A stretch of 64,000 nt of DNA. Origin: Patescibacteria group bacterium (GTDB taxonomy: Bacteria > Patescibacteriota > Patescibacteriia > UBA10025 > JAHIVO01). Position numbers and translations under genes: made by a program. The stretch is taken from contig JBAZWB010000001.1 of assembly GCA_041660605.1 (NCBI GenBank), positions 814,503-878,502 of the forward strand, in the 5' to 3' direction. Under the pieces are notes generated by a model. The model was not told where the DNA came from. It saw only the letters and a program-made list of their open reading frames with translations, and ran no database searches. This document shows positions 6,685 through 23,626 of this stretch, piece after piece (positions within the stretch are counted from its first letter, which is position 1; every line of letters begins with the position of its first letter).

Positions 6685-7488
6685 ATGCATATAATTGACC
6701 GAAAAAAATATTTTGGTATTTTGGTAGGCTTTGGTTTTTGCCTGCTTTTTTTATTGCCTCAATCTGCGGCTGCCCAGATTTATGACGCTAAAAGTATTTT
6801 TCAATTAATCAATCTGGAACGCCAAAAATATAATGCTGGCACACTTTCGGAAAATACTCTGCTGGAGCAGGCGGCTGTAAATAAAGCAAACGATATGGCG
6901 GAAAAAAATTATTTTACGCACCAATCGCCTATCGGTAAAATGCCCTGGGACTTTGCGGTTGAAGCGGGCTATCGATACAGCATTCTGGGAGAAAATCTGG
7001 CAATCGATTGGCCAAGCGCCGCAGAAGTTGTACAGGCCTGGATGGACAGTCCCTCGCACAAAAAAAATATTCTCAATTCTGAATTTTCAGATACCGGCAT
7101 AGCGGTAATAAATTATAATGGCCATTTTCTGGTTGTTCAGATTTTTGGTAAAGCAAACGAAGTTCAAAATGATATAGTCCCAATAACCTTACCGGCCGTA
7201 ACCTTGCCAGCAGTACCGGCTGAAAAAACCACCACTAATCTAATAATCAAGCCCTCTAGCGCTTCGCCGATTGTAAATGAACAAAGTCAATTAACTGTAA
7301 CCTCCATTATAACAAATAAACTAATACCGGAAAATATGGCAGTCCTTGGGGCCAATAATACAAAAAAATCACCGCCTGACACCAACACCATGTCTCAACG
7401 GAATCTTACCCAATATTTAATTGCCACCACCTTTTTTCCTTTAGCCCTTGGATTGTTTGTTTTAAATAATCCAGCCCATCCAAGGTAA
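6685..7488 (+). CDS. Secreted CAP/SCP/PR1-like (YkwD-like) domain protein
   Basis: Signal peptide. CAP motifs YFTHQSP, GENLA, AVQAWMDSPSHKKNIL, DTGIAV. Confidence 0.7.
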   Translation: MHIIDRKKYFGILVGFGFCLLFLLPQSAAAQIYDAKSIFQLINLERQKYNAGTLSENTLLEQAAVNKANDMAEKNYFTHQSPIGKMPWDFAVEAGYRYSILGENLAIDWPSAAEVVQAWMDSPSHKKNILNSEFSDTGIAVINYNGHFLVVQIFGKANEVQNDIVPITLPAVTLPAVPAEKTTTNLIIKPSSASPIVNEQSQLTVTSIITNKLIPENMAVLGANNTKKSPPDTNTMSQRNLTQYLIATTFFPLALGLFVLNNPAHPR

Positions 7489-8458: not shown

Positions 8459-11400
8459 ATGAAGGGAGAGGACAAGCCCGCTTGTCCTACTCCTTTATTA
8501 ACCCTTAACCATAAGAATATGAAAACCAGATCTTTCAGCCCTAAAAAAATATTTCCAAAATCTCGTCTAAGATTTTTAAACATAGTCTTGGCGTTTTTAA
8601 TTACTTTTTTACCCTTTTACCCCGCTGCTTCAGCTCTGGCTGATGAGCCAACCACTTCAGCCCCCATAAACTGCACGGATATTTTAAATAACGGAACGGC
8701 GCTGCAGGGCATTCCGGAGGGTTGCTGGGCACAGGTTGCTGTAAACGAAAACTTTTGCACCAATTTATTCAGCCCAGATAATAATGTAATCGTTGGCCTG
8801 GACTCTATGAGAGCATATTTCACTCAAAGCTGCCTTAACCTTAATGCCTCCCCGACTATTACAACCACTGACCCATTATCAAATGTTGCGACAAATGATC
8901 CAAACTCAACCAATCCACCCGCAATAACACCTGACTCGCAAAATATTACCCCACCCACCCCTGCCGACCAGAACCAAGTAGTCCTGGACACCACCACTCC
9001 AGTCAACGACGGATCGGCAAATCCCCAAACTATCAGCCAGCCAGTTGATCAAATACCCCCTGACCAGCTGGCTTTTGATACTTCTCCTGCTTTAACCCCA
9101 CCGCCATCAGACCCCTCAACAGGAACCCAGACACCACCAGCAGATCAGGCCACTGATCCAAATACTCCTCCACCTCCGCCAGATGGCATAGTAAACGCTA
9201 CCCAGCAGGCCAGCTCAAATACAACCGCCACTAGCCAAAGCAATACTGGCACAAACGATGCCAGCAATAATAACGGTGATGTAAATATAAATACCGGCAA
9301 TGCGACTGCCGGCGTGGACAATCAAAATGTAATTAATACAAACATTGTAGAAAATCAACCGCCTGCTCCGGCTAACGCAGATGTCAATTCAGGTGCTACC
9401 GTAAATCAATTGGGTGATCTCGTATCCAACATCACAACACCGGGGACCGACAATAGCCCGATGGCGCCGGATGGCCAAATACCGACAGACACTCCACCAA
9501 CTGCTGACAGCCAAAATAATACAAATCAGAATTCCGGCAACAATCCGGGTGCTGATAATTTCGCCGGCACCACACAGGATGCTACTGTGGCAAACACTGT
9601 CGGCGTCAACGCTAATACTGGAAACAATACTGCCAATAACAATGACGGGGACGCCACTGTTCAGGCTGGCGATGCTTCGGCTTTAGCAAATGTGGTAAAT
9701 ATTATTAACACGAATGTCGTCAGCGGCAATGCAGCGCAGGTAGTTATCGATGTGGCAGATCAATTCGTGGGCAATATAAATCTCCTGGATATATTAATGA
9801 GCCTGCTCGGGCAGGGAGGCGGCAATAATTCAATTTCATCTTCAACCGCCCAGCAAGCTTCCCTGCAAAATGATATTAATGCCTCTTCCAATACCGGCGG
9901 CAACACAACAAATAATAATGGCGGCGATGGAACAGTAGTTACTGGAAATGCCAATTCTGCCGTCAACTTATTTAATATCGTTAATACCACTATCGAGGGT
10001 TCAAATGTCCTGATTTCATTTGTAAATATATTCGGGAACTGGATTGGTAATTTGATTGTGCCTGGCCAGGGTATATTACCGGCTGGCCAGCAGACAGCTT
10101 CAGTGCAATCCAACTCCCAGCAAACCGCGACAGTCTCTAATACCGTGGTGACAGATGCTTCCACCGGATCCAATACTGCCAGCAATAATAACGGCGACAG
10201 CTCTGTATCTACCGGACAAGCTATTACCCTGGCGGCGATTTATAACTCCCTTAATAACAATGTCACGGGTGATAATATGCTTCTAATAATGCCGAATATA
10301 TTCGGAACTTGGAACGGAACAATTATAAATAATCCTTTGGGTGGCCCAATAAATCCGAACCAGCCTAATGGTTATGGTTTTTATTTTACTAATGGTGCCA
10401 GCGGACTTTTTGGCGTCAGCAGCCAAAACACGCAGGATGCGACCATCAATAATAATGTTTATGTCACCGCCGTGACCGGCAATAACAGCGCCTCAGGCAA
10501 TAGCGGAGATGGCACAGTCATCTCCGGCCAGGCGGCAGCCCTGGCAAACATCATCAATATAGCCAATACGCACTTAATGGGTTCTAACTGGGCATTTACG
10601 GTAATCAATCTTTTCGGCAATTGGCAGGGCAATCTGGTTTATGCTTATCCCGATTTGGGTATAACCAATAGCAATGGCGACCACACTATCCCTGACACAG
10701 TCACCGCTGGCGACCAGGTTACCTATACTCTGCATTATCAAAACACCGGATATGCGGCAGCTGATCAGATAGCCATTCAAGATACTTTTCCGCAGCAGAC
10801 AGTCTTAATTTCAACTTCCGACGGTGGCCAAGCCAATAATGGCGTAATTACCTGGGATGCGGCTTCGCTCGCCGCGCAAAGCGACGTTCAGCAGGTTTCA
10901 TTTACCGTGCAGGTTCCGAAAGATTTAGTAAAGGAAAAGCAAACCACCACTATTACTAATCATGTTTCTATTTTTACCCAGACAAATGAGGTTAATCTTG
11001 ATAATAACGTTTCCGGCAGTTCGCTGACTGTTGTGGCCGCTGCCTCGCCTCAGACAAATCCGACTGAACCCACTACAAACAATCCTGCGGCTAAACCAAA
11101 ACTAGAACTAACCAAAACAAATGATGCGAGTGCGCCACTTAATCCCGGACAATCTGTTACCTATACAATCGTTGCCTCTTCGGTTGGCGATGCCCCAATT
11201 AAAAATTTGACGCTGAACGACGAACTGAAAAATACTCAGGGCAATGTCTCATTTTCCAAAATATGGAATTTTGACAATGTCCCGGTCGGAAAAAATATCA
11301 CGGTCACTTATTCTTTAACAATTCCGCAAGATGAGCAAGTCGGCGTATTTGATAATACTGTAGTGGCTACGGCAGACGGAATAAAATCTATCAGCGCCAG

Positions 11401-12088
11401 TTCTTCGGTTACCGTGCAGTTGCCGGATGCTAATTCGCCTCAAATACAATTGCCAGGGAATGAATTGGGTCCGACTACTGTACCGCCCCAACCAGTCCAA
11501 ACACCGGTCACCCATCTTATCGTCCAAAAAACCAACAACACTTCCGGACCTGTCAGCGCCGGTACGACTGTCAATTACAAAGTCACCGTCGCTAATGACG
11601 GAGATACCACGGTGAAAAATGTCAGCGCCAAGGATATTCTGACATCTGAAAATTTTCCCAATGTGGACTTGCAAAATAAAAATTGGCAAATGGGAGACAT
11701 TCAACCGGGCGAAATCGTCACGATCGCATATGATGTCGCGTATTCTCCTGTTACTCCGGCTGGCGTGTATGTCAATAATGTTGACCTGACCGGCACTGCC
11801 TCGGATAACAGCAAAGTTGACTATAAGGCATCCAGCATTATTAAAATAAAAAATTCAGTTGTCCCTACTCCAGCCTCAACGCCAAAAATTCTTGGAGCCT
11901 CAACCGATACAGGAAATCCACCTCCGCCGAGCAGCCCAAAACTGGTTATGGTACCTGACCAATCTGCCTCCGGAATAAAATCTCTGCTGCCTTGGTGGTT
12001 AATCGCGATTTCAGTAATTATGCTGTTAACTCTGTACTACATATCATATAATCGCGAACAGAAAAAAACGATAAAAACTGCCCAATAA
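8459..12088 (+). CDS. Giant surface protein: signal peptide, Pro/Thr/Asn-rich low-complexity region, at least five copies of a ~35-aa NTxNNNDGD-TVxTGxA repeat, DUF11-type repeats, and a C-terminal TM anchor. The true start is probably the ATG at 8519.
   Basis: Repeat copies include GNNTANNNDGDATVQAGDAS, GGNTTNNNGGDGTVVTGNANS, GSNTASNNNGDSSVSTGQAI and GNNSASGNSGDGTVISGQAAA. DUF11-like segments include TYTIVASSVGDAPIKNLTLNDEL and NYKVTVANDGDTTVKNVSAKDIL. C-terminal helix WWLIAISVIMLLTLYYISY. No LPxTG motif. Confidence 0.7.
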   Translation: MKGEDKPACPTPLLTLNHKNMKTRSFSPKKIFPKSRLRFLNIVLAFLITFLPFYPAASALADEPTTSAPINCTDILNNGTALQGIPEGCWAQVAVNENFCTNLFSPDNNVIVGLDSMRAYFTQSCLNLNASPTITTTDPLSNVATNDPNSTNPPAITPDSQNITPPTPADQNQVVLDTTTPVNDGSANPQTISQPVDQIPPDQLAFDTSPALTPPPSDPSTGTQTPPADQATDPNTPPPPPDGIVNATQQASSNTTATSQSNTGTNDASNNNGDVNINTGNATAGVDNQNVINTNIVENQPPAPANADVNSGATVNQLGDLVSNITTPGTDNSPMAPDGQIPTDTPPTADSQNNTNQNSGNNPGADNFAGTTQDATVANTVGVNANTGNNTANNNDGDATVQAGDASALANVVNIINTNVVSGNAAQVVIDVADQFVGNINLLDILMSLLGQGGGNNSISSSTAQQASLQNDINASSNTGGNTTNNNGGDGTVVTGNANSAVNLFNIVNTTIEGSNVLISFVNIFGNWIGNLIVPGQGILPAGQQTASVQSNSQQTATVSNTVVTDASTGSNTASNNNGDSSVSTGQAITLAAIYNSLNNNVTGDNMLLIMPNIFGTWNGTIINNPLGGPINPNQPNGYGFYFTNGASGLFGVSSQNTQDATINNNVYVTAVTGNNSASGNSGDGTVISGQAAALANIINIANTHLMGSNWAFTVINLFGNWQGNLVYAYPDLGITNSNGDHTIPDTVTAGDQVTYTLHYQNTGYAAADQIAIQDTFPQQTVLISTSDGGQANNGVITWDAASLAAQSDVQQVSFTVQVPKDLVKEKQTTTITNHVSIFTQTNEVNLDNNVSGSSLTVVAAASPQTNPTEPTTNNPAAKPKLELTKTNDASAPLNPGQSVTYTIVASSVGDAPIKNLTLNDELKNTQGNVSFSKIWNFDNVPVGKNITVTYSLTIPQDEQVGVFDNTVVATADGIKSISASSSVTVQLPDANSPQIQLPGNELGPTTVPPQPVQTPVTHLIVQKTNNTSGPVSAGTTVNYKVTVANDGDTTVKNVSAKDILTSENFPNVDLQNKNWQMGDIQPGEIVTIAYDVAYSPVTPAGVYVNNVDLTGTASDNSKVDYKASSIIKIKNSVVPTPASTPKILGASTDTGNPPPPSSPKLVMVPDQSASGIKSLLPWWLIAISVIMLLTLYYISYNREQKKTIKTAQ

Positions 12089-12804
12089 ATATACGTTAGC
12101 ATTGACGACCGGTTAATTAAAGGGAAAATTAACATTTTCAAACCGGCAAAACGGATTGGATCCTGATATCTTTTGCAGGCTCCAGGTTACAGGCTTCATG
12201 CAAAATTAATCTAAATTGTTTAATGTAAGATTAAATATCGGGTACGCAGGGCAATATAGGCCAGGCCTCTCGGATTAAATTCCACATAACATCTTTCTTC
12301 ACTTTTATCTTTATGCTCATTTATATAAATGGATAATGAAAATATACCTGATAATCAATAAATAAAGTTATCCACAGCATATTTAATGTAATAAACCCCC
12401 ATATAAATGCACCTTATTAAAAACATTGACAACAAAAATGTAAAAAAGTAAGATAAATAAACAAATATAAATACGCTTGACAAAAAAACAAAGATATATT
12501 AAGATAAGCCATTCAAATAGCACCTTTAGGCAGGGATCGACGTACCTTATACAATACATTCGGGGGAATGTAAAAAGCCAATATTGAGTTATAAATCGGA
12601 GGAAACTCGCAGAAAACACAAGTAAAAATAAAAAAGTCAGCTAAAATCAATTTAGAAATTCCATTTTTTGAAGCTAATAATTAGCTGATTTTGAACTTCT
12701 CTGTAAGATTTTTAAAATTTGTAACTCGATATTGGCTTTTTGTTTGCAAAAATTACCAACTTTTTAAATATTTATTAAAAAACTAAATTAACCTCCAAAA
12801 ACAT

Positions 12805-15800
12805 ATGAAAATCAATCTTTTACCGAAAAAACGCGAAATCAAAAAAATTACTTACAAAACTCTGCATTTCCTGACTTTATCCGCCCTGGTCTTTAATATG
12901 ACCATGGTCGGCGTTTTTATTACTCCAAAAGCCGCCAATGCCACAGTTACGCCGCCAACTCCGGTAGCCAACCCGGTACTGACACAAAGTTGTGGACTGG
13001 ATATTGGCCTTTTGGTTGATACTTCAGGGAGTATCGATAGCGGTGAAATGACTAAAATGAAGACCGCCTTAACCAGTTTTGCCAATGCATTTGTCGGCAC
13101 ACCGGCAGTTTTCAGCCTTTCGTCATTTGCCAATGAATCATATTTAAGACGAGCATTTTCCAGAACTCCTTCACAAATTGCTGCAGATATCAGTTCAGAC
13201 ATCCCGTCAGATGGCAATGGCTGGACCAACTGGGATTCAGGGTTAGCTCGCAGTTTTGCCACCTTTGATCCCCGACCGGCAAAACCCAATTTAATTGTTA
13301 TCGCGACAGACGGCAGTCCCAACACTTACGGTTATTTCCCAGATCCGACTGTCGAGCCGACTCATAATCCGGCAAATGCTGATGAATTAGCAGCCGGCCT
13401 TAATCATGCGATTGAACGCGCTAATACAATCAAAACTGCCGGAACAAGAGTTGTCGTACTGGGAATTGGCGATGACGAATCTGATCCATCCACGCCTGCG
13501 CAAAAAGTTGATAAGATGAAACAGATCAGCGGACCAAATGTCGCCTACACTACGGCCGATATAACCACTTCCACGGATGTAATCAAAGTTGAAAACTTCG
13601 ATGGCATTGGCGCGGCACTGAGTGAATTCGTCAACCAACTCTGCGGCGGAAAAATTTTAGTGCAAAAACAATTCGACACAAACGGCGATGGCATTGCTGA
13701 AATTACCGGAAGTTCAGCAGATGCAGCGCTTGCTGGTTATACTTTTGATGTTAATGGCTCCCCTTCAAATCCGACCCCTCAAGTTACCGCCAATACCGGT
13801 TCGTTATCGTTTGATGTTTTGAATGGCACCTACAGCGTTACTGAGACTAACTTGCCGGCCAATACGGAAATAGTAAACGGCAAATGCGTGAATGGCACGC
13901 AAAATGTCGGTACCTTCTCATTGGCGACAAAAACCGTTTCAGGATTGACCATGGGAACTGATGATAATATTTCCTGCACATTTCTGAACAAAAATGTATT
14001 TGGAAAACTAAAAGTTATAAAACAAGTTTCTGGCAGCACTGAACCAGTCTCCAGCTGGAGCATGTCAGTAAAAAAAGGCGGCGTGAATGTCGCCGGCAGC
14101 CCGCAACCCGGCAGCACGACTGGCACAGAATATAATCTTGAACCAGGCACTTATACTGTCGGAGAAACCGGACCTGGCGGATACGCGGCTTCCTTCTCAG
14201 CTAGCTGTCCAAGTGGAACAGCAACAGTTACTGCAGGTCAAACAACAACCTGCACAGTGACCAACACCCGCCAAACCGGAACCCTGATTGTGAAGAAAGT
14301 TGTCTCAGGCAGCACTGAACCGTCTGCCAGCTGGTCAATGCATGTGAAACAGGGAGACCAGGAAGTTTCAGGCAGTCCGGCCGCGGGCACTTCAGCCGGC
14401 ACTTCATATACTTTACCGACTGGAACATATAATATTTCTGAAACCGGCGGTCCGAGCAATTACACGGCCAGCTTTTCTGCTGACTGCGTCAATGGTTCAG
14501 CCACCGTTACTGCCGGCCAAACGGTTACCTGCACGGTAACCAACACGCGGGATACCGGGACAATTGAACTGAAAAAAATCTGGTCAGGTCCTGCCGGTCA
14601 GACAACGCTGAACATCGGCACTACCGCCGGTGCGAGCAATGTTGATACACAGCTGACAGGCGCGGCCGGAGCGCCACCGCTGACAACCGGACAGAACACG
14701 GTTAATACCGGCACTTACTATGTTTCAGAAACCGGCGGTTTATCAAACTACAATGCCGCACTCGTCTGCACTGACAATGGCTCACCAATTACTGTTGGCG
14801 TGAATAATTCCGTTAATGTTACCAAGGGCCATGCGGTTGTCTGCACGTTTACCAACACCCGCCAAACAGGGACACTGATTGTGAAGAAAGTTGTCTCCGG
14901 CAGCACTGAACCGTCTGCCAGCTGGTCAATGCATGTCAAACAAAGCGACCAGGAAGTTTCCGGCAGTCCGGCTGCAGGCACTTCCACCGGCACTTCATAT
15001 ACTTTGCCAACTGGAACATATAATGTTTCAGAAACCGGCGGTCCGAGCAATTTCACGGCCAGCTTCTCTGCTGACTGCGTCAATGGCACGGCCACCGTCA
15101 CTGCCGGGCAGACAGTTACCTGCACGGTAACTAATACCCGGGATACCGGCCACATTACATTTAATAAAATTGTCAGCGGCGGCTCTGCCCATGATAATGA
15201 TTTTACCTTTAGTGTTTACGGGCAAGATTACCACGATGGCGATATAGCTACATTACCGACCGGATCATATGCGCTGACAGAATCAGGCCCAATTGGCTAT
15301 ACTTTATCCGCAGCCAGCGGTGTTTGCAGCTTTAGCCCAAGTGCAGATAATAACGTAACTCTGACTGTCACCAAAGATGGCGGTACCTGCAACATCACCA
15401 ATACTCGCGATACCGGCACTATCACCGTGCATAAGTTTTTACAGCTGCCCGGCGAAGATCCAATCTACGATCCGGAAAACTGGTCATGGACATTATCAAG
15501 CCAGCACGGGAGCGTATCAGGCTTGGCTGGTGGAGATACAAAAACCGTACTGACCATCGACGAATATACAGTGGCTGAGGATACTTCAAATTTTCCTGAA
15601 AATAATTTCGCCACCACCTGGACTTGCAATGCTGTCGGTGATGAGAATACTCCGTTTGCTAACGGCACCGGCACTTCATTCAATTTCACCTTAACCCATC
15701 CGGGCCAGAACGTCGTCTGCACTTTCACCAATGTCCGCGAAACAACGGAGATTACCTTTGATAAAGTTGTTGTCGGCGGCAATGAGGCAGACAGTGCCTG

Positions 15801-17835
15801 GGCCTTTGCCATTGACGGCCAGGGAGCATATCACGAAGGCGATGTAGCAAGCTTACCGACAAACGAGGAATTTGATATTACCGAATCTTCACAGTTTGAT
15901 AATTTATACACTTTAACAGGTGCTTCAGGAATTTGCTCACTGGAAGATGGCCATTTAATTCTGAACACGGATTTTAATGAAGATTCCAGGATTCTTCAAA
16001 GTGAACTGCCCACCTGCATTGTGGAAAATACCCGCAATACCGGCAGCTTAACAGCCCATAAATTTATGGATGCTGACGGCAATCTGGAGACAACCGGAGA
16101 TCAAACCCCGGTTGCCGGCTGGACTATCGAACTCTGGCAGGGTGATAATAAAATTGACACCCAAGTAACCGGAGAAGACGGCAGCTACACCTGGAATATT
16201 CTGCCGACTGGAAATTATGTGGTGAAGGAAATATTCGACTCTGCAGATTATCAGGCTCTCACTGCCACTCAATTTCCGGCTGAAGTTACGACTAACGAAA
16301 ATGCAGAGGTAACTTTTTCCAATTTCAAGAAAATTGATTTAACCGCTTCCAAGTTAATGGACGCCGACGGTTCTGCAAAAACCACTCAAGACCGCTCAAC
16401 AGTTGCGGGTTGGACCATTGAACTCTGGCAAGGTGAGAATCTTCTAGGCTCACAGACCACCAATGAAGAGGGCTTTGTAGTTTTTGAAAACCTCGGGCCT
16501 GGTTCATATATAGTCAAAGAAGTATTCGATTCCAGTAAATACACCGCGCTGACTGAAACCGAAATGCAGGTTACGGCCGTCTCAGGTCAGGACCAAACAG
16601 TTTCATTCGTCAACTTTACCAACGAACCGGCCATTACTCTGGTAAAATCTATTACCAATTCCCATCTGATACCCGGAGGATTCATCAATTACCAGCTTTC
16701 CTACACCAATACCGGTAATTTAGACTTAACAAATGTTAAGCTCGTTGATGATTATCCTCAGCAATATCAGACAATAACTGATCCGGGAACTGGCATAGAC
16801 AATGGCGATACTCTTACCTGGATGATCGGCAATCTGGCAATCGGCGAGACTGGTACGGTGACTTATACAACTTCGATAAAATCCGATGTGCCTGGGAATA
16901 CCAATATCATCAACCTGGCCACCATCACATCAGACCAAACCGATCCCCTGACTGCTACAGCTACTGCCCTTGTTCCGCTTCCGCCGGTAGAGGGCCAGCC
17001 AGTGCTGACTATTACCAAGGCTGTAAATAAACTTTTTGTGAATCCCGGCAATCACGCTATCTACACGGTTACTGTTGCCAATTCTGGCGATGCTGCCGCT
17101 ATTAATGCTGAACTCTCAGACCTACTACCCGCTGGATTTACTTTCACAGAATTTGGTACTAGTACCCACACTTGGGCGCTGGGTGATCTGGCAGCCGGAG
17201 AAACTAAAATAATTACATATGAAGTGACTATCGGTACTGGCGTTACTGCCGGCAATTATGAAAACCTGGCCACTGTGCACGCAGATAACCACGGCAGCCT
17301 CCAGGCCAAAGTAAATCTGGAAGTCAGGGTGCCTAAAGTTCTAGCCGAGGAAGCAGAGCCATTGCTGACCATAGAAAAAACAGCGGACAAGGTATTCATC
17401 AACCAGGGAGATACTGTCACCTATACTATCAAGGTTACCAACCAGGGTGATGAGGACGCTGAGGCAGTAGCGCTGAACGTAAAAACTGAGGATTTCTTAC
17501 CGGCTGGATTCACTTTCGCTGACGGTAAAGTTTCCAAAATCTGGGAGCTTGGCGATATCCGCCCAGGCGAGACAAGAGTAATCACCTATACGGCTAAATC
17601 CGACAAGACTTTACTCCCCGGCAATTACGAGAACTTGGCTTCCGCCTGGGCTGATAATCATGACAAGGTTACAGATTCAGTAAAAGTTGAAGTGCGCAAA
17701 ATTAAAGTACTCGGCGAAGCCTTGCCGACTACCGGCGGTTCCCTGATGTTCTATCTGTATCTGCTGGCAATTGGCTTGATAATCGCTTTTGTCGGTTGGG
17801 TGCTGAAACTGACATTATCAACAAGCCGCGAGTAA
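12805..17835 (+). CDS. Giant LPxTG-type surface adhesin: signal peptide, vWA domain, multiple SpaA/prealbumin-like and Cna B-type domains, DUF11 repeats, and a C-terminal LPTTGG sorting signal
   Basis: vWA MIDAS motif DIGLLVDTSGSID...IATDGSPN. Repeated G-x-Y-x-[IV]-[SG]-ETG...TCTVTNTR modules. Cna B-like TAHKFMDADGN...GWTIELWQ...DGSYTWNILPTGNYVVKE, present twice. DUF11 modules include TYTVTVANSGDAAAINAELSDLLPAGFTF. C-terminus KVLGEALPTTGGSLMFYLYLLAIGLIIAFVGWVLK. Confidence 0.8.
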   Translation: MKINLLPKKREIKKITYKTLHFLTLSALVFNMTMVGVFITPKAANATVTPPTPVANPVLTQSCGLDIGLLVDTSGSIDSGEMTKMKTALTSFANAFVGTPAVFSLSSFANESYLRRAFSRTPSQIAADISSDIPSDGNGWTNWDSGLARSFATFDPRPAKPNLIVIATDGSPNTYGYFPDPTVEPTHNPANADELAAGLNHAIERANTIKTAGTRVVVLGIGDDESDPSTPAQKVDKMKQISGPNVAYTTADITTSTDVIKVENFDGIGAALSEFVNQLCGGKILVQKQFDTNGDGIAEITGSSADAALAGYTFDVNGSPSNPTPQVTANTGSLSFDVLNGTYSVTETNLPANTEIVNGKCVNGTQNVGTFSLATKTVSGLTMGTDDNISCTFLNKNVFGKLKVIKQVSGSTEPVSSWSMSVKKGGVNVAGSPQPGSTTGTEYNLEPGTYTVGETGPGGYAASFSASCPSGTATVTAGQTTTCTVTNTRQTGTLIVKKVVSGSTEPSASWSMHVKQGDQEVSGSPAAGTSAGTSYTLPTGTYNISETGGPSNYTASFSADCVNGSATVTAGQTVTCTVTNTRDTGTIELKKIWSGPAGQTTLNIGTTAGASNVDTQLTGAAGAPPLTTGQNTVNTGTYYVSETGGLSNYNAALVCTDNGSPITVGVNNSVNVTKGHAVVCTFTNTRQTGTLIVKKVVSGSTEPSASWSMHVKQSDQEVSGSPAAGTSTGTSYTLPTGTYNVSETGGPSNFTASFSADCVNGTATVTAGQTVTCTVTNTRDTGHITFNKIVSGGSAHDNDFTFSVYGQDYHDGDIATLPTGSYALTESGPIGYTLSAASGVCSFSPSADNNVTLTVTKDGGTCNITNTRDTGTITVHKFLQLPGEDPIYDPENWSWTLSSQHGSVSGLAGGDTKTVLTIDEYTVAEDTSNFPENNFATTWTCNAVGDENTPFANGTGTSFNFTLTHPGQNVVCTFTNVRETTEITFDKVVVGGNEADSAWAFAIDGQGAYHEGDVASLPTNEEFDITESSQFDNLYTLTGASGICSLEDGHLILNTDFNEDSRILQSELPTCIVENTRNTGSLTAHKFMDADGNLETTGDQTPVAGWTIELWQGDNKIDTQVTGEDGSYTWNILPTGNYVVKEIFDSADYQALTATQFPAEVTTNENAEVTFSNFKKIDLTASKLMDADGSAKTTQDRSTVAGWTIELWQGENLLGSQTTNEEGFVVFENLGPGSYIVKEVFDSSKYTALTETEMQVTAVSGQDQTVSFVNFTNEPAITLVKSITNSHLIPGGFINYQLSYTNTGNLDLTNVKLVDDYPQQYQTITDPGTGIDNGDTLTWMIGNLAIGETGTVTYTTSIKSDVPGNTNIINLATITSDQTDPLTATATALVPLPPVEGQPVLTITKAVNKLFVNPGNHAIYTVTVANSGDAAAINAELSDLLPAGFTFTEFGTSTHTWALGDLAAGETKIITYEVTIGTGVTAGNYENLATVHADNHGSLQAKVNLEVRVPKVLAEEAEPLLTIEKTADKVFINQGDTVTYTIKVTNQGDEDAEAVALNVKTEDFLPAGFTFADGKVSKIWELGDIRPGETRVITYTAKSDKTLLPGNYENLASAWADNHDKVTDSVKVEVRKIKVLGEALPTTGGSLMFYLYLLAIGLIIAFVGWVLKLTLSTSRE

Positions 17836-17862
17836 TCAATTTACTTCGGCGAGAGAAATACA

Positions 17863-17897
17863 AAAAGACCCTGCGGTTTTACCCGGGGTCTTTTTGG
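17863..17897. terminator. Rho-independent, near-palindromic terminator of gene 12805..17835; also the 5' boundary of repeat copy A
   Basis: AAAAAGACCC-tgcggttttacccg-GGGTCTTTTT, with an A-tract before and a T-tract after. Confidence 0.75.
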
Positions 17898-18128
17898 TTT
17901 ATCGCTTTGTCACATCGAGCCCCTCGACTATGCTCAGGGTAACCACCTCCCCCTTAGCAAAGGTTATTGATTTAGTCTTGCCTTTATGTGGCCCCTCCTT
18001 AGTAGGAGGGGTGGACACCTCCCCAGTAAACTCAAGTGGTATTACTGGCGTCTTTCTCCCCTCCTTGGAAAGGAGGGGAATTGTCTCAGCACTAGTAATA
18101 GCAGAATGATAGTGATGAGGGGTGGTTA
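17863..18128. repeat. Structured intergenic repeat, copy A: terminator, about 40 bp, then a conserved core of about 185 bp with CCCCTCC/GGAGGGG hairpins
   Basis: About 85-90% identical to 23514..23574 plus 24009..24190. Contains the hairpins CCCCTCC-ttagta-GGAGGGG and CCCCTCCTT-gga-AAGGAGGGG. A 1-nt indel between copies breaks both overlapping ORF frames. Confidence 0.7.
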
Positions 18129-18207
18129 GAATAACTACCACCCCCCCCCTTGACAGACCCCCTAGTATTAGGCTAAGGTATGTGATTAACAAGTGCATAA
18201 CTTTTGA

Positions 18208-18237
18208 TTGACAAATATAGCCTATTTTTACTATAAT
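18208..18237 (+). promoter_or_regulatory. Sigma70-type promoter for the giant gene 18298..23496
   Basis: Perfect consensus: TTGACA (18208-18213), 18-nt spacer, TATAAT (18232-18237). An SD AAGGAG lies at 18283-18288, 9 nt before the ATG at 18298. Confidence 0.55.
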
Positions 18238-18297
18238 TTCAGCACCAAAACAAAAAATTTATCAACCGAAACCCTAATAAATAAGGAGAAAACAACT

Positions 18298-21200
18298 ATG
18301 CATTTAATCAATGCGAAATCAGCCCGACATTACACCCCCTTGGTCGTAGCGGCGGTCTTTGTCGTGGGTTTAGTGAGTATTTTATTTATTCCGAAACCAG
18401 CATTTGCTGCGAGAAATCTAACAAACGCTACCGTTAATGACACAAATGCGGTAACAGTTGGCCCAAATGAATCCATAAATGTTTGGCTTGAGGTAACTAC
18501 AAGTAGAAATTTGAATAATCCAATGGACGAAAATGACTGGAAGTCAACAAGCTATAAAATCGGTAATAACGCGTGGGTATGCTTGGACACACCAGATCAT
18601 ACGGTTTCCGGGACATATTCTGAAACTTTTTCCATCACTGCGCCTGGAACAGCTGGTGTCTATAATTTTAAATTAAAAGCCTGGAAAAATGATGATTGTT
18701 CCCATGGGGCAAGCAATGAAAAAGTTATGAACAACGCAATAACCGTAGCTAATCCTGTTTGCGGTGACGGTGATATTAATCAAGCTTCCGAAGAATGCGA
18801 TGACGGAAATATAACGGGCGGCGATGGCTGTAGCTCTACCTGTACAATCGAACCTACCACCGGCACGCTCCGCCTGGTTAAAAATACTGTTGGTGGAGAT
18901 GATACTTTCTCCATTTTATGGACAACCTGTGATTTCAATGTTCTCCCCGGCTTCTGTATGACCGCGTTCCCAGTTTCGACCAGCTCAATCACGACAAGCG
19001 GTGGCACCAATTACATTGATTATGAAGTTCCTGCAGGCTGGTATACTGCCAGCGAGGACGACTCGACATTACCAGTCGGCTGGGTCCGTACAGATACATC
19101 ATGCGGCGGATTCAGTGGGCTGTACGTGGCCGCAGGCCAAACAACTACCTGCACAATTACTAATACTTACACTCCCCCATGCGGAAATGGGACAGTAGAT
19201 CCAGGTGAACAATGCGATGACTACAATAACCAAAACGGCGATGGGTGCGATGCAAATTGTAACATTGAAATACCCGACCAGGATGCCGACGGCATTTCTG
19301 ATTCTTCTGATAATTGCCCAAAAGTTGCCAATCCAGACCAGGCAGACAGAGATAATGACGGCATAGGAGATTATTGCGATAATTGCCAATCTATATCTAA
19401 TGCCGATCAGGCTGATAACGACGGTGATTATTACGGTAATGTTTGTGATAATTGCCAAAATGTGTACAACCAGACTCAGGCTGATTCTGATAACGATGGC
19501 GTTGGTGATTCCTGCGATAATTGCCCTACAATGACGAATCCAGATCAATCAGAATCTGACGGAGATAAAATCGGTAATACCTGCGATAATTGCCCCCTGG
19601 CATTCAATCCTGATCAGGCTGATGCGAATGGAAACGGAGTTGGTAATGCTTGTGATATTGTTTGCGGTAACTATGTCGTAGAACCCGGCGAACAATGTGA
19701 CGACGGGAATATTCAAAATGGCGATGGCTGCAGCGCCACTTGCACCATAGAACTGCCCGATCAGGATCATGATGGTATTTCTGATGCTTCTGATAATTGT
19801 CGCTATGTAGCCAATCCCGACCAGGTGGATACTGATGCGGACGGTCTCGGTGATTATTGCGACAATTGCAAAATGATTCCAAATGATGACCAGGCAGACA
19901 GTGATGGAGATTTAATAGGAGAAGTATGCGATAACTGCGCGTATACTGCCAATAGTGACCAGTCGGATGATGACGTTGATGGCCTGGGCAATGCCTGCGA
20001 TAACTATAACTGTATTATTACCGGGGCAGAAGATTGCAATTACGGGTATGATAATGATTGCGATGGATTTGTTGATTGTGCCGATAGTGATTGTAACGAT
20101 GATCCGATCTGCCAGCCAATCGTTTGCGGCAACGGTATTACCGAAACCGGAGAGCAATGCGATGACGGTAACACCACAAATATTGATGGCTGTTCTTCAA
20201 CCTGCCAAACAGAAAATGTTTGCACTCCAGGCTGCTACTCTGTCTGGGTCGGAGATCAATACTGTGATGAATCATGCAATAATGCCTCATGCAATTGGGA
20301 TGGCGGCGACTGCGGTCCAACCTGCGGCAATGATATTACCGAAACTCCGGAGGAATGCGACGGAAACTCACAATCGTGTACAACCGCCCAAGGATACGCC
20401 GGTTCGCAAAATTGTAATATGCCAATTAGAGATGCCTTCACAATAACATCTGCTGTACAAAGTTATTGCACCTGGAACCCCTGCATTACCCAGGAATTCT
20501 GTGGTGATAATACTATAAACGGTACGGAACAATGCGACGATGGTAATACAGTTGATGGCGACGGTTGCAGTGCCGCTTGCACTACAGAAGCACCAACTTG
20601 CCCGAATCTATTCTTCTCTGAATACATTGAAGGCAACGGTAATAATAAAGCACTGGAAATTTATAACCCGACCGCCAGCGGCGTAAATCTGAACGGTTAT
20701 GCTGTGGTGATTTATTCCAATGGCTCAACCACCCCCAGCCAAACAATTGCGCTTTCAAATACCACTTTGGGAACGGGTAATGTATATGTACTTGCTCATC
20801 CTGCTGCGGATGCGGGTATAACAAGCCACGCTAACCAACTTTCTGGCAATATAACTTTTAATGGAGACGATGCAGTTATTCTGAAAAATGGGTCAACAAT
20901 AATTGATGCTATCGGCCGAATCGGCTATCAACCAGGCTCTGGTGAATGGGGAACCGGCCTTACCAGCACAAAAGATAATACTCTGGTCAGAAAATGCGGA
21001 ATCAGTTGTGGTGATATGAATGGATCTGATTCATTCAATCCTGCTACTGAATGGGACGGCTATGCAATCAATACATATTCCTACTTAGGCTCGCATACTC
21101 TGGCATGCCCTGTCTGTGGTGACGATATATTAAACGGTGATACTGAACAGTGCGACGATGGGAATCTGGTTGATGGCGACGGTTGCTCAGCAAAATGTAC

Positions 21201-23496
21201 CTGGGAACCAGCCACCATTAATGCACAAAAGATTGTTTGCAATGATGAATCTTTACTGCCAAATTGGGGAACGGGTGGCCCAGATATCACCTCTTCAACA
21301 GCCGCTGACTATGTTGCCAGCCATGAGGGTTGCCGCTTAGTTGACTGGACTTTTCAATGGAGACCAGATGGAACAAATCCATACAACCCGGGAGATAATA
21401 CTGGCGAGGCAAGTGGTGCATGGTCAACTCCATTCAGCGCTTCAGCTGACATTTCCACAGATATCTCAAAAGTCTGGCTGCGCGAAGTGTGGAATTCTGA
21501 ATATATTCCCTTTACCTATGAATCGGCAGATGGAAATTTAAATAATGTAAGTGCAGAATTTTACTGCAACGCAGATGTGTTAAATTACGATAACTTAGAA
21601 TGGATAAATACCCAGCCTGGCCAGGAATATTACTGCGTAGGATTTAATGCACTCGCGGCTCGCTGCGGCGATGGCACTGTAAATCAGGAATCCGAACAAT
21701 GCGATGGTGATGCGGATAAAGCATGCACCACGCCTGATGGCTACGCTGGCACCCAAACCTGCAATATGCCTATCAAAGGCGACTTCGTAGCTGTTTTTAG
21801 GATAGAAAATTCCTGCACCTGGAACCCTTGCGATCCGACTGAGTTCTGCGGCGACGGGATCGTGAACGGCACTGAAGAGTGTGACGGAGATGCCGGCATT
21901 ACCGGCGAAGAGTTCTGCTCAGACTCATGCACCATTGAAACAACCAGCTTTGAACTCACAAAATCAGTCCTGGTAAATGGAGAACTGTCAAGCACCGCCA
22001 ATGAAGGTGATACGCTCACCTACACTATCACTGCAAAAAATACCGGCACTACTGACGAGTCTAATCTGGTCATTAAAGACACTACGCCGACCAATACGAC
22101 ATTGGTTCCTGGAGAACTAGGATATCAGGTCAATGGCGATGAATTAACCTGGGACGCATTCAACCTCGACGCAGGAGACACCCACGAAGTTACCTTCAAT
22201 GTGACCGTCAACGGCAGCTTACCAGAAGGAACCACGGAAATCACCAATGAAGCTACGCTTTGGCAGTTTGAGGGAGCCAACTTAGAGGTTGCATCCCCTG
22301 TCAGCTTTTTGCATAAGGTTTTGGGAATCAAAACTGCAAACGCACAAGCTGCTCCGTTGGTCTTGAGAGCTACTTCAAATTTAGTCCTGACCACTGTCGT
22401 AATTGGAGTCAAACCGTTTTGCGGCGACAATATGGTTAACCAGGAATTCGAGCAGTGCGACGGCACCGACGGTGTTGGAGAGCACCAGCAATGCAATGCC
22501 GATTGCCGTCTGGAAAATCTTCCTTATTGCGGCGATGGGATTAAGAACGGTACTGAGGAATGCGATACTACTGACGGAATTACCGGCGACCAGACCTGCT
22601 CAGAGACCTGCACCATCGTTGAGCCTGAACCAACGCTGAATCCAGTACTCTCAATCATTAAGTCAGTAGATAAAACAACTACCAATCCCGGCACAACGCT
22701 GGTTTACACAGTTACTGTTTCCAATTCCGGCAGTGTTGAGGCTACGGACGTAGTAATGACTGACGCTTTACCGGCCGGATTTACATTTGCTAATGCCGAC
22801 GGTAGTAATTCCGGTGATACGAATAAGACCTGGAATTTAGGCGACCTGGCTGCTGGTGGTGATACTACTGTTACTTATAACGTGTTGGTAGATTCAAATG
22901 CCGGATCTAGAATATATACAAACACTGCTACGGCTACTGCTAGTAACTTCACTGGTTCAGTCACTGCCAAGGCAGACGTTAACGTAATTATAACGAAAGT
23001 GCTCGGAGAAACTGCTTCGCAACTGACCATTACCAAAAAAGCTGATAAAGCCTTCACCAACCCGGCAGGCAGAATCACCTACACAGTTACCGTTACGAAT
23101 AATGGCGACGCGCCGGCTATGAACGCGGTACTGGTAGATAAATTACCCGCAGGATTGATCTATGCAGGTACCAAGGACCAAACTACGGCTACTTGGAAGC
23201 TTGGCGATATCGCACCGACAGAAACAATCACAAAGACATATCAAGCTACGGTGTTACCAAAAACAGAACCAGGTAAATACGTTAATACCGCTTCGGTTTC
23301 GGCTGACGATGTAGCCAAGATATCAGCTAATGCCACAGTAGAGGTGCGGAAAGTGGCAGTCCTGGGCGCGGAAACAGACGAAGATGCGGCTTTACCGGTA
23401 ACCGGTATGAACATTATTCAGTATCTCTACATTATCGGTGCCGGACTAGTGGTGATCTTCTCCGGTTGGGCTCTGAGACTGACGATTTCCAGATAA
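18298..23496 (+). CDS. Giant mosaic LPxTG-type surface protein: signal peptide, Myxococcus cysteine-rich repeats, thrombospondin type-3 Ca-binding repeats, an LNR-like repeat, a lamin-tail domain, DUF11 repeats, and a C-terminal LPVTG sorting signal
   Basis: Start MHLINAKSA...AFA (signal peptide); the ORF track's upstream extension from 18208 overlaps the promoter. Cysteine-rich repeats such as CGDGxINQxSEECDDGNxxxGDGCSxTC, about 12 copies. TSP3: DQDADGISDSSDNCPKVANPDQADRDNDGIGDYCDNC and similar. LNR-like: CYSVWVGDQYCDESCNNASCNWDGGDCG. Lamin-tail domain: FFSEYIEGNGNNKALEIYNPT...VILKNGSTIIDAIGRIG. DUF11 modules include LVYTVTVSNSGSVEATDVVMTDALPAGFTF. C-terminus LPVTGMNIIQYLYIIGAGLVVIFSGWALRL. 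Confidence 0.8.
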   Translation: MHLINAKSARHYTPLVVAAVFVVGLVSILFIPKPAFAARNLTNATVNDTNAVTVGPNESINVWLEVTTSRNLNNPMDENDWKSTSYKIGNNAWVCLDTPDHTVSGTYSETFSITAPGTAGVYNFKLKAWKNDDCSHGASNEKVMNNAITVANPVCGDGDINQASEECDDGNITGGDGCSSTCTIEPTTGTLRLVKNTVGGDDTFSILWTTCDFNVLPGFCMTAFPVSTSSITTSGGTNYIDYEVPAGWYTASEDDSTLPVGWVRTDTSCGGFSGLYVAAGQTTTCTITNTYTPPCGNGTVDPGEQCDDYNNQNGDGCDANCNIEIPDQDADGISDSSDNCPKVANPDQADRDNDGIGDYCDNCQSISNADQADNDGDYYGNVCDNCQNVYNQTQADSDNDGVGDSCDNCPTMTNPDQSESDGDKIGNTCDNCPLAFNPDQADANGNGVGNACDIVCGNYVVEPGEQCDDGNIQNGDGCSATCTIELPDQDHDGISDASDNCRYVANPDQVDTDADGLGDYCDNCKMIPNDDQADSDGDLIGEVCDNCAYTANSDQSDDDVDGLGNACDNYNCIITGAEDCNYGYDNDCDGFVDCADSDCNDDPICQPIVCGNGITETGEQCDDGNTTNIDGCSSTCQTENVCTPGCYSVWVGDQYCDESCNNASCNWDGGDCGPTCGNDITETPEECDGNSQSCTTAQGYAGSQNCNMPIRDAFTITSAVQSYCTWNPCITQEFCGDNTINGTEQCDDGNTVDGDGCSAACTTEAPTCPNLFFSEYIEGNGNNKALEIYNPTASGVNLNGYAVVIYSNGSTTPSQTIALSNTTLGTGNVYVLAHPAADAGITSHANQLSGNITFNGDDAVILKNGSTIIDAIGRIGYQPGSGEWGTGLTSTKDNTLVRKCGISCGDMNGSDSFNPATEWDGYAINTYSYLGSHTLACPVCGDDILNGDTEQCDDGNLVDGDGCSAKCTWEPATINAQKIVCNDESLLPNWGTGGPDITSSTAADYVASHEGCRLVDWTFQWRPDGTNPYNPGDNTGEASGAWSTPFSASADISTDISKVWLREVWNSEYIPFTYESADGNLNNVSAEFYCNADVLNYDNLEWINTQPGQEYYCVGFNALAARCGDGTVNQESEQCDGDADKACTTPDGYAGTQTCNMPIKGDFVAVFRIENSCTWNPCDPTEFCGDGIVNGTEECDGDAGITGEEFCSDSCTIETTSFELTKSVLVNGELSSTANEGDTLTYTITAKNTGTTDESNLVIKDTTPTNTTLVPGELGYQVNGDELTWDAFNLDAGDTHEVTFNVTVNGSLPEGTTEITNEATLWQFEGANLEVASPVSFLHKVLGIKTANAQAAPLVLRATSNLVLTTVVIGVKPFCGDNMVNQEFEQCDGTDGVGEHQQCNADCRLENLPYCGDGIKNGTEECDTTDGITGDQTCSETCTIVEPEPTLNPVLSIIKSVDKTTTNPGTTLVYTVTVSNSGSVEATDVVMTDALPAGFTFANADGSNSGDTNKTWNLGDLAAGGDTTVTYNVLVDSNAGSRIYTNTATATASNFTGSVTAKADVNVIITKVLGETASQLTITKKADKAFTNPAGRITYTVTVTNNGDAPAMNAVLVDKLPAGLIYAGTKDQTTATWKLGDIAPTETITKTYQATVLPKTEPGKYVNTASVSADDVAKISANATVEVRKVAVLGAETDEDAALPVTGMNIIQYLYIIGAGLVVIFSGWALRLTISR

Positions 23497-23513
23497 TTTC
23501 AGAAATTTCAATA

Positions 23514-23549
23514 CAAAAAGACCCTGCGGTTTTACCGAGGGTCTTTTTG
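23514..23549. terminator. Rho-independent terminator of gene 18298..23496, nearly identical to the terminator at 17863
   Basis: AAAAAGACCC-tgcggttttaccga-GGGTCTTTTT. Confidence 0.75.
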
Positions 23550-23626
23550 GTTTATCCGCTCTGTCACATCGACCGAAGTGGAGATGTCTCTAAGATAATT
23601 ACATACTACCTTTTTGGTATTTAAAA

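Follow-up and report, generated by a model that had tools for sequence, protein, structure and literature searches.

A stand-alone vWA protein with a predicted crosslinked stalk and a sortase signal is a likely fibrillar surface adhesin of Patescibacteria

The DNA analyzed (a stretch of 64 kb, hereafter the window) contained on its forward strand an open reading frame (12805-17835) starting with ATG and running unbroken for 1676 amino acids. An identical protein is deposited in GenBank (MFA6098648.1, Patescibacteria) under the NCBI-assigned name 'SpaA isopeptide-forming pilin-related protein'. The modules followed one another in the order signal peptide, vWA domain, eight SpaA_2-like modules, two CnaB (SpaA) modules, three DUF11 ('CLIPPER') modules, and LPTTG with a transmembrane (TM) helix and a basic tail, so that the stalk totaled 13 domains (8 SpaA_2-like, 2 CnaB, and 3 DUF11). 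The Pfam matches to VWA, SpaA_2, SpaA, and DUF11 all exceeded curated cut-offs; modules M0, M5, M6, and M7, for which Pfam made no call, were added here. The motifs quoted in the first-pass annotation were located at aa 72-76 (DTSGS), 168-170 (TDG), 1086-1142 (KFMDADG...GWTIELWQ...GNYVVKE), and 1640 (LPTTGG, with a hydrophobic helix and then a K/R tail behind it), and the modules with GTYTVGETG and TCTVTNTR were present as well. The layout of fibrillar adhesins was thus complete: a secretion signal at the N-terminus, a putative adhesive head, stalk domains in tandem, and an anchor at the C-terminus. The whole protein used as a single-sequence query gave no match in the PDB, and profiles were required for the PDB matches reported below. 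Features of the gene and its surroundings are collected in Table 1.

Table 1. Features of the adhesin gene and of its neighbors in the window (position 1 is the first letter of the 64 kb).
Feature	Positions	Strand	Details	Basis
Neighbour A	8459..12088	+	N-terminal 730 aa of no known type, DUF11 x3, C-terminal TM helix, no LPxTG	26% identity to the adhesin tail
Long hairpin	12565..12744	+	ends in GGCTTTTT, ~60 nt 5' of the adhesin start codon	folding energy, comparison with related loci
Putative Sec-type signal peptide, aa 1-46	12805..12942	+	basic n-region, hydrophobic core, AANA|T cleavage-like site	read from sequence alone
vWA head, aa ~60-282	12982..13650	+	MIDAS D72, S74, S76, T141, D169; bracketed by C63 and C280	Pfam VWA, family alignment, AF2, Foldseek
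Stalk module M0, aa 282-399	13648..14001	+	K288/E347/N395, C361-C391	alignment A3, AF2
Seven SpaA_2-like (CnaB-type) modules M1-M7, aa 400-1079	14002..16041	+	K/E/N triad and Cys pair in each	Pfam SpaA_2 x4, alignment A1
Two canonical CnaB/SpaA modules, aa 1080-1274	16042..16626	+	K1086/E1142/N1173, K1183/E1239/N1270	Pfam SpaA PF17802, alignment A1
Three DUF11/CLIPPER (CnaA-like) modules, aa 1275-1639	16627..17721	+	K1281/D1315/N1370, K1405/D1439/N1487, K1525/D1563/N1610	Pfam DUF11, alignments A2/A4/A5
Cell-wall sorting signal	17722..17835	+	LPTTG aa 1640-1644, hydrophobic helix 1647-1668, basic tail, stop codon	sequence; alignment of 16 tails
Paralogue C	18208..23496	+	TSP3 / Cys-rich repeat / lamin-tail head, DUF11 x3, LPVTG	domain matches; 44% identity to the adhesin over the tail
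Paralogue D	24433..27024	+	SGL/NHL beta-propeller head, DUF11 x2, LPVTG	domain matches, sequence comparison

An N-terminal vWA domain with an intact MIDAS, as claimed in the first-pass annotation, was clearly present. Pfam VWA matched aa 66-255 (E 5.5e-8), and the five MIDAS residues and the two bracketing cysteines were all invariant in the 24 family members aligned. The AlphaFold2 (AF2) model of aa 47-400 had a vWA fold (pLDDT 91.8, with a lower-confidence loop of ~20 residues at aa ~177-196), which Foldseek related with probability 1.0 to the vWA domains of integrin I, ANTXR2, PTMP1, SpaC, PilB, and LapA, SpaC being no nearer than the integrin I domains. The domain started ~14 aa past the signal-peptide cleavage site, the residues at its N-terminal side were coil in the model, and Ig modules occurred on the C-terminal side only. 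The adjoining module M0 was all-beta in the same model, with K, E, N, and both Cys invariant (alignment A3). The segment of vWA plus M0 was matched by 88 homologues, mostly over its full length; M0 and vWA are conserved jointly as one head unit.

Stalk modules were matched by Pfam SpaA_2 (PF19403; four stretches, E 5.6e-18, 65.7 bits), SpaA (PF17802; two stretches, E 5.6e-30, 103.8 bits), and DUF11 (PF01345; three stretches, E 1.8e-38, 131.8 bits vs. a cut-off of 24.6), along with a weak SdrD_B match. Pfam, alignments, and motif reading together confirmed the prealbumin-like/CnaB modules, the DUF11 repeats, and the LPxTG signal that had been proposed. The ten CnaB-type modules were 16-29% identical to the first of them, and K, E, and N were the sole invariant columns of their alignment (A1), this Asn being that of the 'TNT' motif. 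The Lys-Asn/Asp triads sought in the CnaB modules were therefore found as K/E/N in all ten, including the Glu of the E-box, which in M6 is more likely E925 than the E932 chosen by the aligner. The A1 profile matched in the PDB the CnaB domains of a collagen adhesin, SpaC, RrgC, RrgA, and FbaB, and it aligned K and E to the CnaB domains of 6FWV and N to RrgC 4OQ1.

In the three DUF11 repeats, K, D, and N were invariant, and they were equally so across homologues (A2, A4, and A5), this triad not being universal within the CLIPPER/DUF11 family. The A5 profile matched the isopeptide-containing CLIPPER crystal structure 9IFR (E 2.3e-4). This alignment paired the first-strand Lys, placed the Asp within the 'LNDTL' segment of 9IFR, and ended ahead of Asn806. 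The AF2 model of aa 1274-1645 (pLDDT 90.5) displayed three beta-sandwich domains. All 13 stalk modules accordingly keep a Lys/Glu/Asn or a Lys/Asp/Asn triad at known isopeptide-bond positions, and published work counts CLIPPER and SpaA_2 among the isopeptide domains that build the stalks of fibrillar adhesins (10.1101/2025.04.25.650565). A Lys-Asn isopeptide bond that forms spontaneously probably locks each stalk domain, and the conserved cysteines suggest that the eight SpaA_2-like modules probably hold a disulfide too. Both isopeptide and ester bonds had been put forward as possible intramolecular crosslinks: the former idea is favored by the invariant TNT Asn and the conserved triads, whereas Thr-Gln ester bonds found no support, as no T, Q, or H column was invariant among the ten modules of A1. 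Modules M2 and M4 shared 89.6% nucleotide identity (gene nt 1446-1754 vs. 2037-2345), which, to judge by this value, marks them as a recent internal duplication.

The C-terminus had the layout of a sortase substrate, with LPxTG, a hydrophobic segment, and a basic tail, and the 'TG' of the motif was invariant in the 16 tails aligned. No sortase gene was found within the window, and none from the 960,449-bp contig of this genome appeared among the matches listed (best 120; single-sequence and profile searches), a depth at which one could easily be missed; covalent wall anchoring is a prediction for this organism. At six of eight related loci a sortase gene adjoined the adhesin gene, with an overlap of ~20 nt at the adhesin 3' end in two of them, and His, Cys, and Arg were invariant in these sortases. 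The two closest relatives (L001 and L006) were like the window in that no sortase gene followed the adhesin. This shared absence, the result for the contig, and the TM helix without LPxTG at the end of Neighbour A would fit an organism without sortase processing, in which the C-terminal helix tethers the protein to the membrane and LPTTG is a relic. We consider such tethering unlikely, given that LPxTG, helix, and basic tail are intact in three paralogues of the window and that TG does not vary across the family, a sign of continued selection; moreover, over half of CPR genomes encode a sortase (PMC6744442). The same study lists MdbA/VKOR and sortase as enriched in CPR, and a VKOR gene was present in the window. 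The hypothesis that canonical LPxTG motifs go with no adjacent sortase and non-canonical ones with a dedicated sortase was dropped because a sortase adjoins the adhesin at locus L007 (LPQTG) as well as at the P0008 locus (LPKTG).

The combination of vWA, CnaB-type domains, and LPxTG had been interpreted in the first-pass annotation as the tip adhesin of a sortase-assembled pilus (RrgA, SpaC, or GBS104 type), whose pilus sortase would join the Thr of LPTTG to a Lys of the backbone pilin. SpaC and RrgA were indeed among the Foldseek and profile-search matches, and the NCBI name also refers to a pilin. Gene content pointed elsewhere: the window held no small LPxTG protein or backbone-pilin candidate, no class C sortase was found in it or at the eight related loci, none of these loci had a pilin gene, and they presented at most one adjacent sortase. 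Those adjacent sortases passed the generic sortase model only, with class C scores of 63-71 bits against a cut-off of 160 and with the class D, E, and F models below cut-off as well; related sortases with an NCBI class were D or E among the matches listed. In the protein itself, a YPKN-like pilin motif was looked for and not found, and no NCBIfam pilin model scored above cut-off. In RrgA (PDB 2WW8), a compact pilin of 3-4 domains, the vWA domain interrupts an Ig-like one, and the vWA domains of RrgA and SpaC bear long inserted arms that are absent here; the vWA domain of the present protein is terminal and followed, not flanked, by Ig modules, and its fold resembles SpaC no more than it does integrin I domains. 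In addition, a stalk of 13 domains of its own would make a pilus shaft unneeded. A role at the tip of a pilus is thus very improbable.

Among the homologues listed, which were 25-57% identical over the locally aligned part, 89 of 120 had the vWA head and nearly all had the DUF11 tail. Head and tail were conserved units across homologues whereas the middle stalk varied, some members carrying SdrD_B domains. The view of this architecture as an unusual chimera could not be upheld because MFA6098648.1 is on record and those 89 listed homologues share the vWA head; nor are the DUF11 modules archaeal or Chloroflexi-style, since DUF11 is a standard stalk domain of adhesins and no speciality of those groups. 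The design is common in Patescibacteria and already annotated.

Gene order at the related loci was L10, YceG, PCMT, CAP, adhesin, (sortase), BacA, and Fpg. Type IV pilus genes, for a T2SSE ATPase, a T2SSF platform protein, and an N_methyl pilin, lay directly upstream of the orthologue in L001 and L006, the two closest syntenic loci, and the vWA domain of Streptococcus sanguinis PilB was among the fold matches. By analogy with PilY1 or with the minor pilin PilB, the vWA adhesin might then be delivered or presented by the type IV pilus machinery. Type IV pilus genes were not found near the adhesin gene in the window, nor in L002-L005 or L007, and the protein combines a Sec-type signal peptide with a sortase signal, having no prepilin (class III) leader, so we give this reading hardly any credence. 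The 'Pam pilus' of CPR bacteria is unrelated, as it relies on donor-strand exchange and its description makes no mention of isopeptide, LPXTG, or vWA (10.64898/2026.03.03.709456).

The window contained three sortase substrates, all of them giants, and the adhesin forms with its neighbors a group of three or four adjacent paralogues that have a common CLIPPER + LPxTG anchor cassette and different heads. A shared anchor cassette with differing heads suggests a small repertoire of attachment specificities. Paralogue C probably has its true start at ATG 18298; a perfect sigma70 consensus occupied positions 18208-18237, at the 5' end of its reading frame.

The hairpin upstream of the adhesin gene folded with a dG of -56.6 kcal/mol (z -6.6), had a basal stem of 22 bp with four compensatory pairs, and matched no family in Rfam. 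Equivalent hairpins preceded the orthologous adhesins in L001, L004, L005, and L006. When an 18-mer from the hairpin arm was scanned against a genome collection, mostly chance matches in unrelated phyla were obtained, and the full hairpin was found in three loci only. We propose that the hairpin may serve the adhesin gene, with which it appears to be associated, as a structured 5' leader or as an attenuator. An invertible promoter was also considered for this inverted repeat, and a TTGACA box lies between the arms in L004 and L005; this was disfavored by the short spacing of the arms (only 60-125 bp), by the lack of a recombinase gene in the vicinity, and by the G-U asymmetry, which favors the sense strand and points to RNA.

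All these factors taken together, we consider it likely that the gene product is a stand-alone, sortase-anchored fibrillar surface adhesin of the ultra-small Patescibacteria (CPR), with a vWA head on a crosslinked rod of 13 domains. The adhesin would be exported by Sec, and its vWA domain would act through the metal site of the MIDAS as the ligand-binding head, probably for a molecule of the host-cell surface, as its domain family suggests. The 13 tandem Ig-like domains would hold this head off the cell on a rod estimated at ~50 nm, with formation of the Lys-Asn isopeptide bonds presumably catalyzed by Glu in the CnaB-type modules and by Asp in the CLIPPER modules. A sortase would be expected to cleave the C-terminal LPTTG and to join the adhesin covalently to peptidoglycan.

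A life attached to host cells is assumed for Patescibacteria, and in the one lineage that is genetically tractable, a Saccharibacterium requires multiple adhesins to grow epibiotically (PMC10633639). A MIDAS head, a long stalk with predicted crosslinks, and a dedicated sortase in most relatives make this protein family a concrete and widespread candidate for host attachment, and the head-swapped paralogues beside it suggest a route for host-range diversification. As a type, the protein is nothing unusual: automatic annotation already recognizes it, its homologues are numerous, and it agrees with what has been published on isopeptide-stabilized fibrillar adhesins. More speculatively, and with considerable doubt, the conserved locus of CAP protein, leader hairpin, vWA adhesin, and sortase could be the central unit by which this lineage of Patescibacteria attaches to hosts, expanded here into head-swapped adhesins on one CLIPPER/LPxTG cassette, with the vWA adhesin under an undescribed structured RNA leader of 120-180 nt (attenuator/terminator type, no Rfam family).

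Direct homologues were vWA-DUF11 surface proteins of other Patescibacteria (e.g., a 'DUF11 domain-containing protein' of Kerfeldbacteria and a 'VWA domain-containing protein' of Saccharibacteria), which share the head of vWA plus M0, the tail of three CLIPPER modules plus sorting signal, and the locus synteny. They differ in the number and type of middle stalk modules and in the sorting motif (LPxTG vs. LAxTG vs. [DE]TGAG), and the present genome differs from their loci by its four tandem DUF11-tailed genes and by the lack of an adjacent sortase. The fibrillar adhesins of Costa et al. 2025 (10.1101/2025.04.25.650565; e.g., Acinetobacter silvestris B9T28_05395, PDB 9IFR) likewise comprise a signal peptide, an adhesive head, a stalk of isopeptide-type Ig domains, and a C-terminal sorting domain; their CLIPPER modules have the same K/D/N triad, and SpaA_2 is a predicted isopeptide family in that work. 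In contrast, Patescibacteria are not mentioned there, and the protein described here joins three families of stalk domains and adds a conserved Cys pair in its SpaA_2-like modules. MSCRAMM-type adhesins (Cna, SdrD) also carry a head on tandem CnaB/SdrD_B-type repeats with an LPXTG anchor, whereas here the head is a vWA domain and not a DEv-IgG A-region, and the organism is a CPR bacterium. Finally, RrgA (2WW8), SpaC (6M48/6M3Y), and GBS104 share with this protein a MIDAS-bearing vWA binding module, CnaB-type isopeptide domains, and an LPxTG-type signal; in comparison, it is about twice their size, has 13 stalk domains vs. 3-4 domains in total, and is encoded in a window without a pilus islet (class C sortase, backbone or basal pilins).

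The open reading frame at 12805-17835 (forward strand) begins with ATG, extends over 1676 codons without interruption and represents a real gene. All the motifs quoted in the first-pass annotation were located in place within this frame, and the domain inventory proposed there, with its sorting signal, was correct. Pfam matches above curated cut-offs were VWA, SpaA_2 (four stretches), SpaA (two), and DUF11 (three). Each of the eight SpaA_2-like modules (M0-M7) displayed the pattern G-x-[ILV]-x-[ILVFA]-x-K ... Y-x-[ILVFA]-x-E ... C-x-[ILVF]-x-N-x-R. The mature protein was computed at ~1597 aa and 167 kDa, with a pI of 4.4.

Coordinates of the adhesin domains (aa) and of associated features in the window and in related loci (nt)
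Feature	Location	Strand	Remarks
Sec-type signal peptide	aa 1-46		
vWA domain	aa ~60-282		C63 and C280 at its two ends
SpaA_2-like modules M0-M7	aa 282-1079		eight, of roughly 90-118 aa; one Cys pair per module
Canonical CnaB/SpaA modules	aa 1080-1274		two
DUF11 modules	aa 1275-1639		three
LPTTG	aa 1640-1644		hydrophobic helix 1647-1668, then basic tail
Equivalent hairpin, L001	9722-9893		
Equivalent hairpin, L004	7794-7918		
Equivalent hairpin, L005	7812-7931		
Equivalent hairpin, L006	7757-7893		
Equivalent hairpin, L017, L095, L102			
Adhesin-adjacent sortase, L002	15764-16522		
Adhesin-adjacent sortase, L003	13412-14077		
Adhesin-adjacent sortase, L004	13918-14580		
Adhesin-adjacent sortase, L005	13279-13944		
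Adhesin-adjacent sortase, L007	5699-6277		
CAP/YkwD-family secreted proteins	6685-7488; 27267-28862	+	two, either side of the adhesin cluster
VKOR (vitamin K epoxide reductase) homologue	36341-36796	-	

An identical protein was already present in GenBank (MFA6098648.1 / MFA6496002.1, 960,449-bp contig) under the name 'MAG: SpaA isopeptide-forming pilin-related protein [Patescibacteria group bacterium]'. The homologue search yielded 160 proteins at E <= 1e-10, from sources including Kerfeldbacteria, Saccharibacteria, Gottesmanbacteria, and Daviesbacteria. A vWA was found in 89 of the 120 listed homologues, with DxSxS intact in nearly all; its start ranged from aa 45 to 560 and was often not N-terminal. 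The conserved units were the head (vWA plus M0) and the tail (three DUF11 modules plus the sorting signal), the middle stalk varying in module number and type. The many vWA homologues with conserved head and tail indicated that this architecture belongs to an ordinary type of CPR surface protein rather than being unique, so that the 'unusual chimera' with DUF11 initially proposed was not borne out. Among homologues P0002-P0070 the sorting motif was LPxTG, LAxTG (VLGLATTG), or [DE]TGAG, and in every case a helix and then a basic tail came after it; LAxTG is the motif of class E sortases. The type of motif showed no correspondence with the presence of an adjacent sortase and was rejected as a predictor of it.

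In the alignment of the head (target aa 47-400 and 23 homologues, 36-69% identity) the five MIDAS residues D72, S74, S76, T141, and D169 were invariant, as were C63 and C280 flanking the vWA, and K288, E347, N395, C361, and C391 of M0. The vWA plus M0 segment was matched by 88 homologues, most of them over its full length, indicating that both domains travel as one unit. The AlphaFold2 model of aa 47-400 was confident (pLDDT 91.8, pTM 0.78) and comprised two domains, the first Rossmann-like alpha/beta and the second all-beta. Foldseek comparison of this model with the PDB retrieved vWA/integrin-I domains at probability 1.0, including ANTXR2, mussel PTMP1, CD11b, and TEM8, and the vWAs of the bacterial adhesins SpaC, S. 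sanguinis PilB, LapA, and Mfa5 appeared at the same level. The vWA fold with complete MIDAS claimed for the N-terminal domain was confirmed by prediction; since both types of matches score alike, the modeled fold represents the MIDAS vWA in general rather than the sortase-pilus tip type in particular.

Alignment of the ten SpaA_2-like/CnaB modules of the stalk (16-29% identity to the first module) contained only three invariant columns: the first-strand Lys, the Glu of the E-box (Y-x-V-x-E), and the last-strand Asn. CnaB-type domains with Lys-Asn isopeptide bonds show this same triad. The ten-module profile matched CnaB domains of collagen adhesin 6FWV (E 1.5e-5), SpaC, RrgC, RrgA, and FbaB/SpyCatcher, with Lys, Glu, and Asn lining up with the equivalent strands. 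All three DUF11 modules of the target kept Lys, Asp, and Asn, and alignments of 16 homologous tails and of 18 single domains showed no variation at these residues either. DUF11 was renamed 'CLIPPER' in a 2025 isopeptide-bond survey that solved the crystal structure 9IFR, whose K715-N806 bond, with catalytic D748, confers thermal and protease stability (10.1101/2025.04.25.650565). The DUF11 single-domain profile matched 9IFR at E 2.3e-4, in an alignment that paired the first-strand Lys and put the Asp within the 'LNDTL' segment of 9IFR, and it also matched a DUF11-type domain of the Aureispira grappling-hook GhpA (5898 aa; PDB 9flp, E 5.9e-11). The GhpA domain was the stronger of the two matches. 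The tail model was likewise confident (pLDDT 90.5) and presented three beta-sandwiches on a string, and its PDB matches were generic tandem Ig arrays. Intramolecular isopeptide or ester bonds had both been suggested for this protein. The former are likely in the stalk, their formation being inferred from the triads kept; Thr-Gln ester bonds are unsupported, as no Thr, Gln, or His column was invariant among the ten modules.

The Cys pair present in each of the eight SpaA_2-like modules points to a disulfide there, and the VKOR homologue is a possible disulfide-forming partner for these pairs and for C63/C280 of the vWA; MdbA-like oxidoreductases with VKOR are enriched in CPR (PMC6744442). M2 and M4 shared 89.6% nucleotide identity (window nt 14250-14558 vs. 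14841-15149; gene nt 1446-1754 vs. 2037-2345), an internal duplication that points to recent change in stalk length.

Four tandem genes with DUF11/CLIPPER repeats at their C-terminal end occupy 8459-27024. The first, gene A (8459-12088, +), combines three DUF11 modules with a C-terminal TM helix and lacks LPxTG. The target and paralogues C (18208-23496, +) and D (24433-27024, +), all of them giants, were the only three sorting-signal ORFs in the window. They displayed 44-49% mutual identity over the last ~270-350 aa, a common tail of two CLIPPER modules followed by sorting signal (LPVTG in C and D), helix, and tail. Their heads were unrelated, that of C being a TSP3 / Cys-rich repeat / lamin-tail domain and that of D an SGL/NHL beta-propeller. 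This looks like one anchor cassette bearing different heads across neighboring genes; surface proteins bearing sortase motifs and beta-propellers are known to be numerous in CPR bacteria (PMC5220378). A perfect sigma70 consensus at 18208-18237 (TTGACA-18-TATAAT, 12/12) coincided with the mechanical TTG start of 18208-23496; paralogue C probably starts at ATG 18298 (MHLINAKS..., then signal peptide), with its own promoter. A DUF559 / MTES_1575 endonuclease-like gene (23627-24199) lies between C and D on the opposite strand, and a DUF559 gene holds the same position in the P0008 locus.

Upstream of the target, a 716-nt AT-rich region contained a 180-nt hairpin (12565-12744, +; dG -56.6 kcal/mol, z -6.6) that ended in GGCTTTTT, ~60 nt ahead of the ATG, and matched no Rfam family. 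Equivalent hairpins of 120-172 nt were located 80-130 nt upstream of the adhesins in four related loci (L001, L004, L005, and L006). In hairpin-bearing loci the upstream gene differed and the adhesins were only ~35-45% identical. A 22-bp basal stem (AAAGCCAAC..GTTATAA / TTATAAC..GTTGGCTTTTT) was conserved, with four pairs changed on both sides (compensatory), and the apical part was variable. The genome-collection scan found the full hairpin confined to Patescibacteria; two matches corresponded to already-seen lineages, with a vWA head downstream in each, and one to a new genome. Overall, the hairpin preceded a vWA adhesin gene by 60-130 nt in at least six Patescibacteria genomes. G-U wobbles were strongly one-sided (10 in sense vs. 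1 in antisense; non-pairs, 4 vs. 13), and in 4 of 5 loci folding was stronger for the sense than for the antisense strand, which favors an RNA element transcribed together with the adhesin. A promoter-like TTGACA-17-TAAGAT was situated upstream of the hairpin, the same in the window and L001, whereas in L004 a TTGACA box fell within the hairpin instead. Our best guess is a leader attenuator or terminator; the element could represent a leader, attenuator, or small RNA of a type not yet described.

The gene order L10, YceG, NTP-transferase, PCMT, CAP, adhesin, BacA, Fpg, CBS was common to related genomes, with the CAP gene conserved at its flanking positions. No sortase was found in the 64-kb window by motif search or by Pfam at E <= 1 on unannotated ORFs, and tblastn with an orthologue-adjacent sortase gave only E > 6. 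The main alternative to wall linkage, a target that stays membrane-tethered, would agree with the absence of an adjacent sortase at window 27025-27266 and likewise in the closest relatives (L001 and L006), and of any sortase from this genome's contig among the best matches listed in two deep sortase searches. Covalent wall anchoring is inferred from the intact sorting signal and from the orthologous loci, since 6 of 8 syntenic loci have a single sortase gene next to the adhesin or its cluster. In L004 and L005 the sortase gene overlapped the adhesin 3' end by ~20 nt. The orthologue-adjacent sortases retained catalytic His, Cys, and Arg and scored above the cut-off for the generic sortase model only, below it for every class including class C; related sortases with an NCBI class assignment were class D or E.

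The initial reading of a pilus tip adhesin with the RrgA/SpaC layout was not supported, given a window without sortase and eight related loci without a backbone-pilin-like gene; a YPKN-like pilin motif was absent from the target. Domain parse and head model placed the vWA directly after the signal peptide, not nested inside an Ig domain. This un-nested vWA, the target's own 13-domain stalk (estimated at ~50 nm if each Ig-like domain spans roughly 4 nm), and the missing pilus genes argue against a tip pilin and fit a fibrillar adhesin that stands on its own, anchored in the wall. In L001 (3159-9430) and L006 (1346-7587) an insertion immediately ahead of the adhesin orthologue carries a type IV pilus gene set, comprising T2SSE ATPase, T2SSF platform, N_methyl pilin, small unknown genes, and a 603-aa unknown protein; this set was absent from the window and the target had no prepilin leader.

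The family is widespread and a candidate for mediating host attachment in CPR bacteria. This candidacy and the RNA-like element conserved upstream account for most of its interest, which is modest overall. The target is best read as an uncharacterised, probably isopeptide-stabilised fibrillar adhesin and predicted sortase substrate, a new member of a kind already known.
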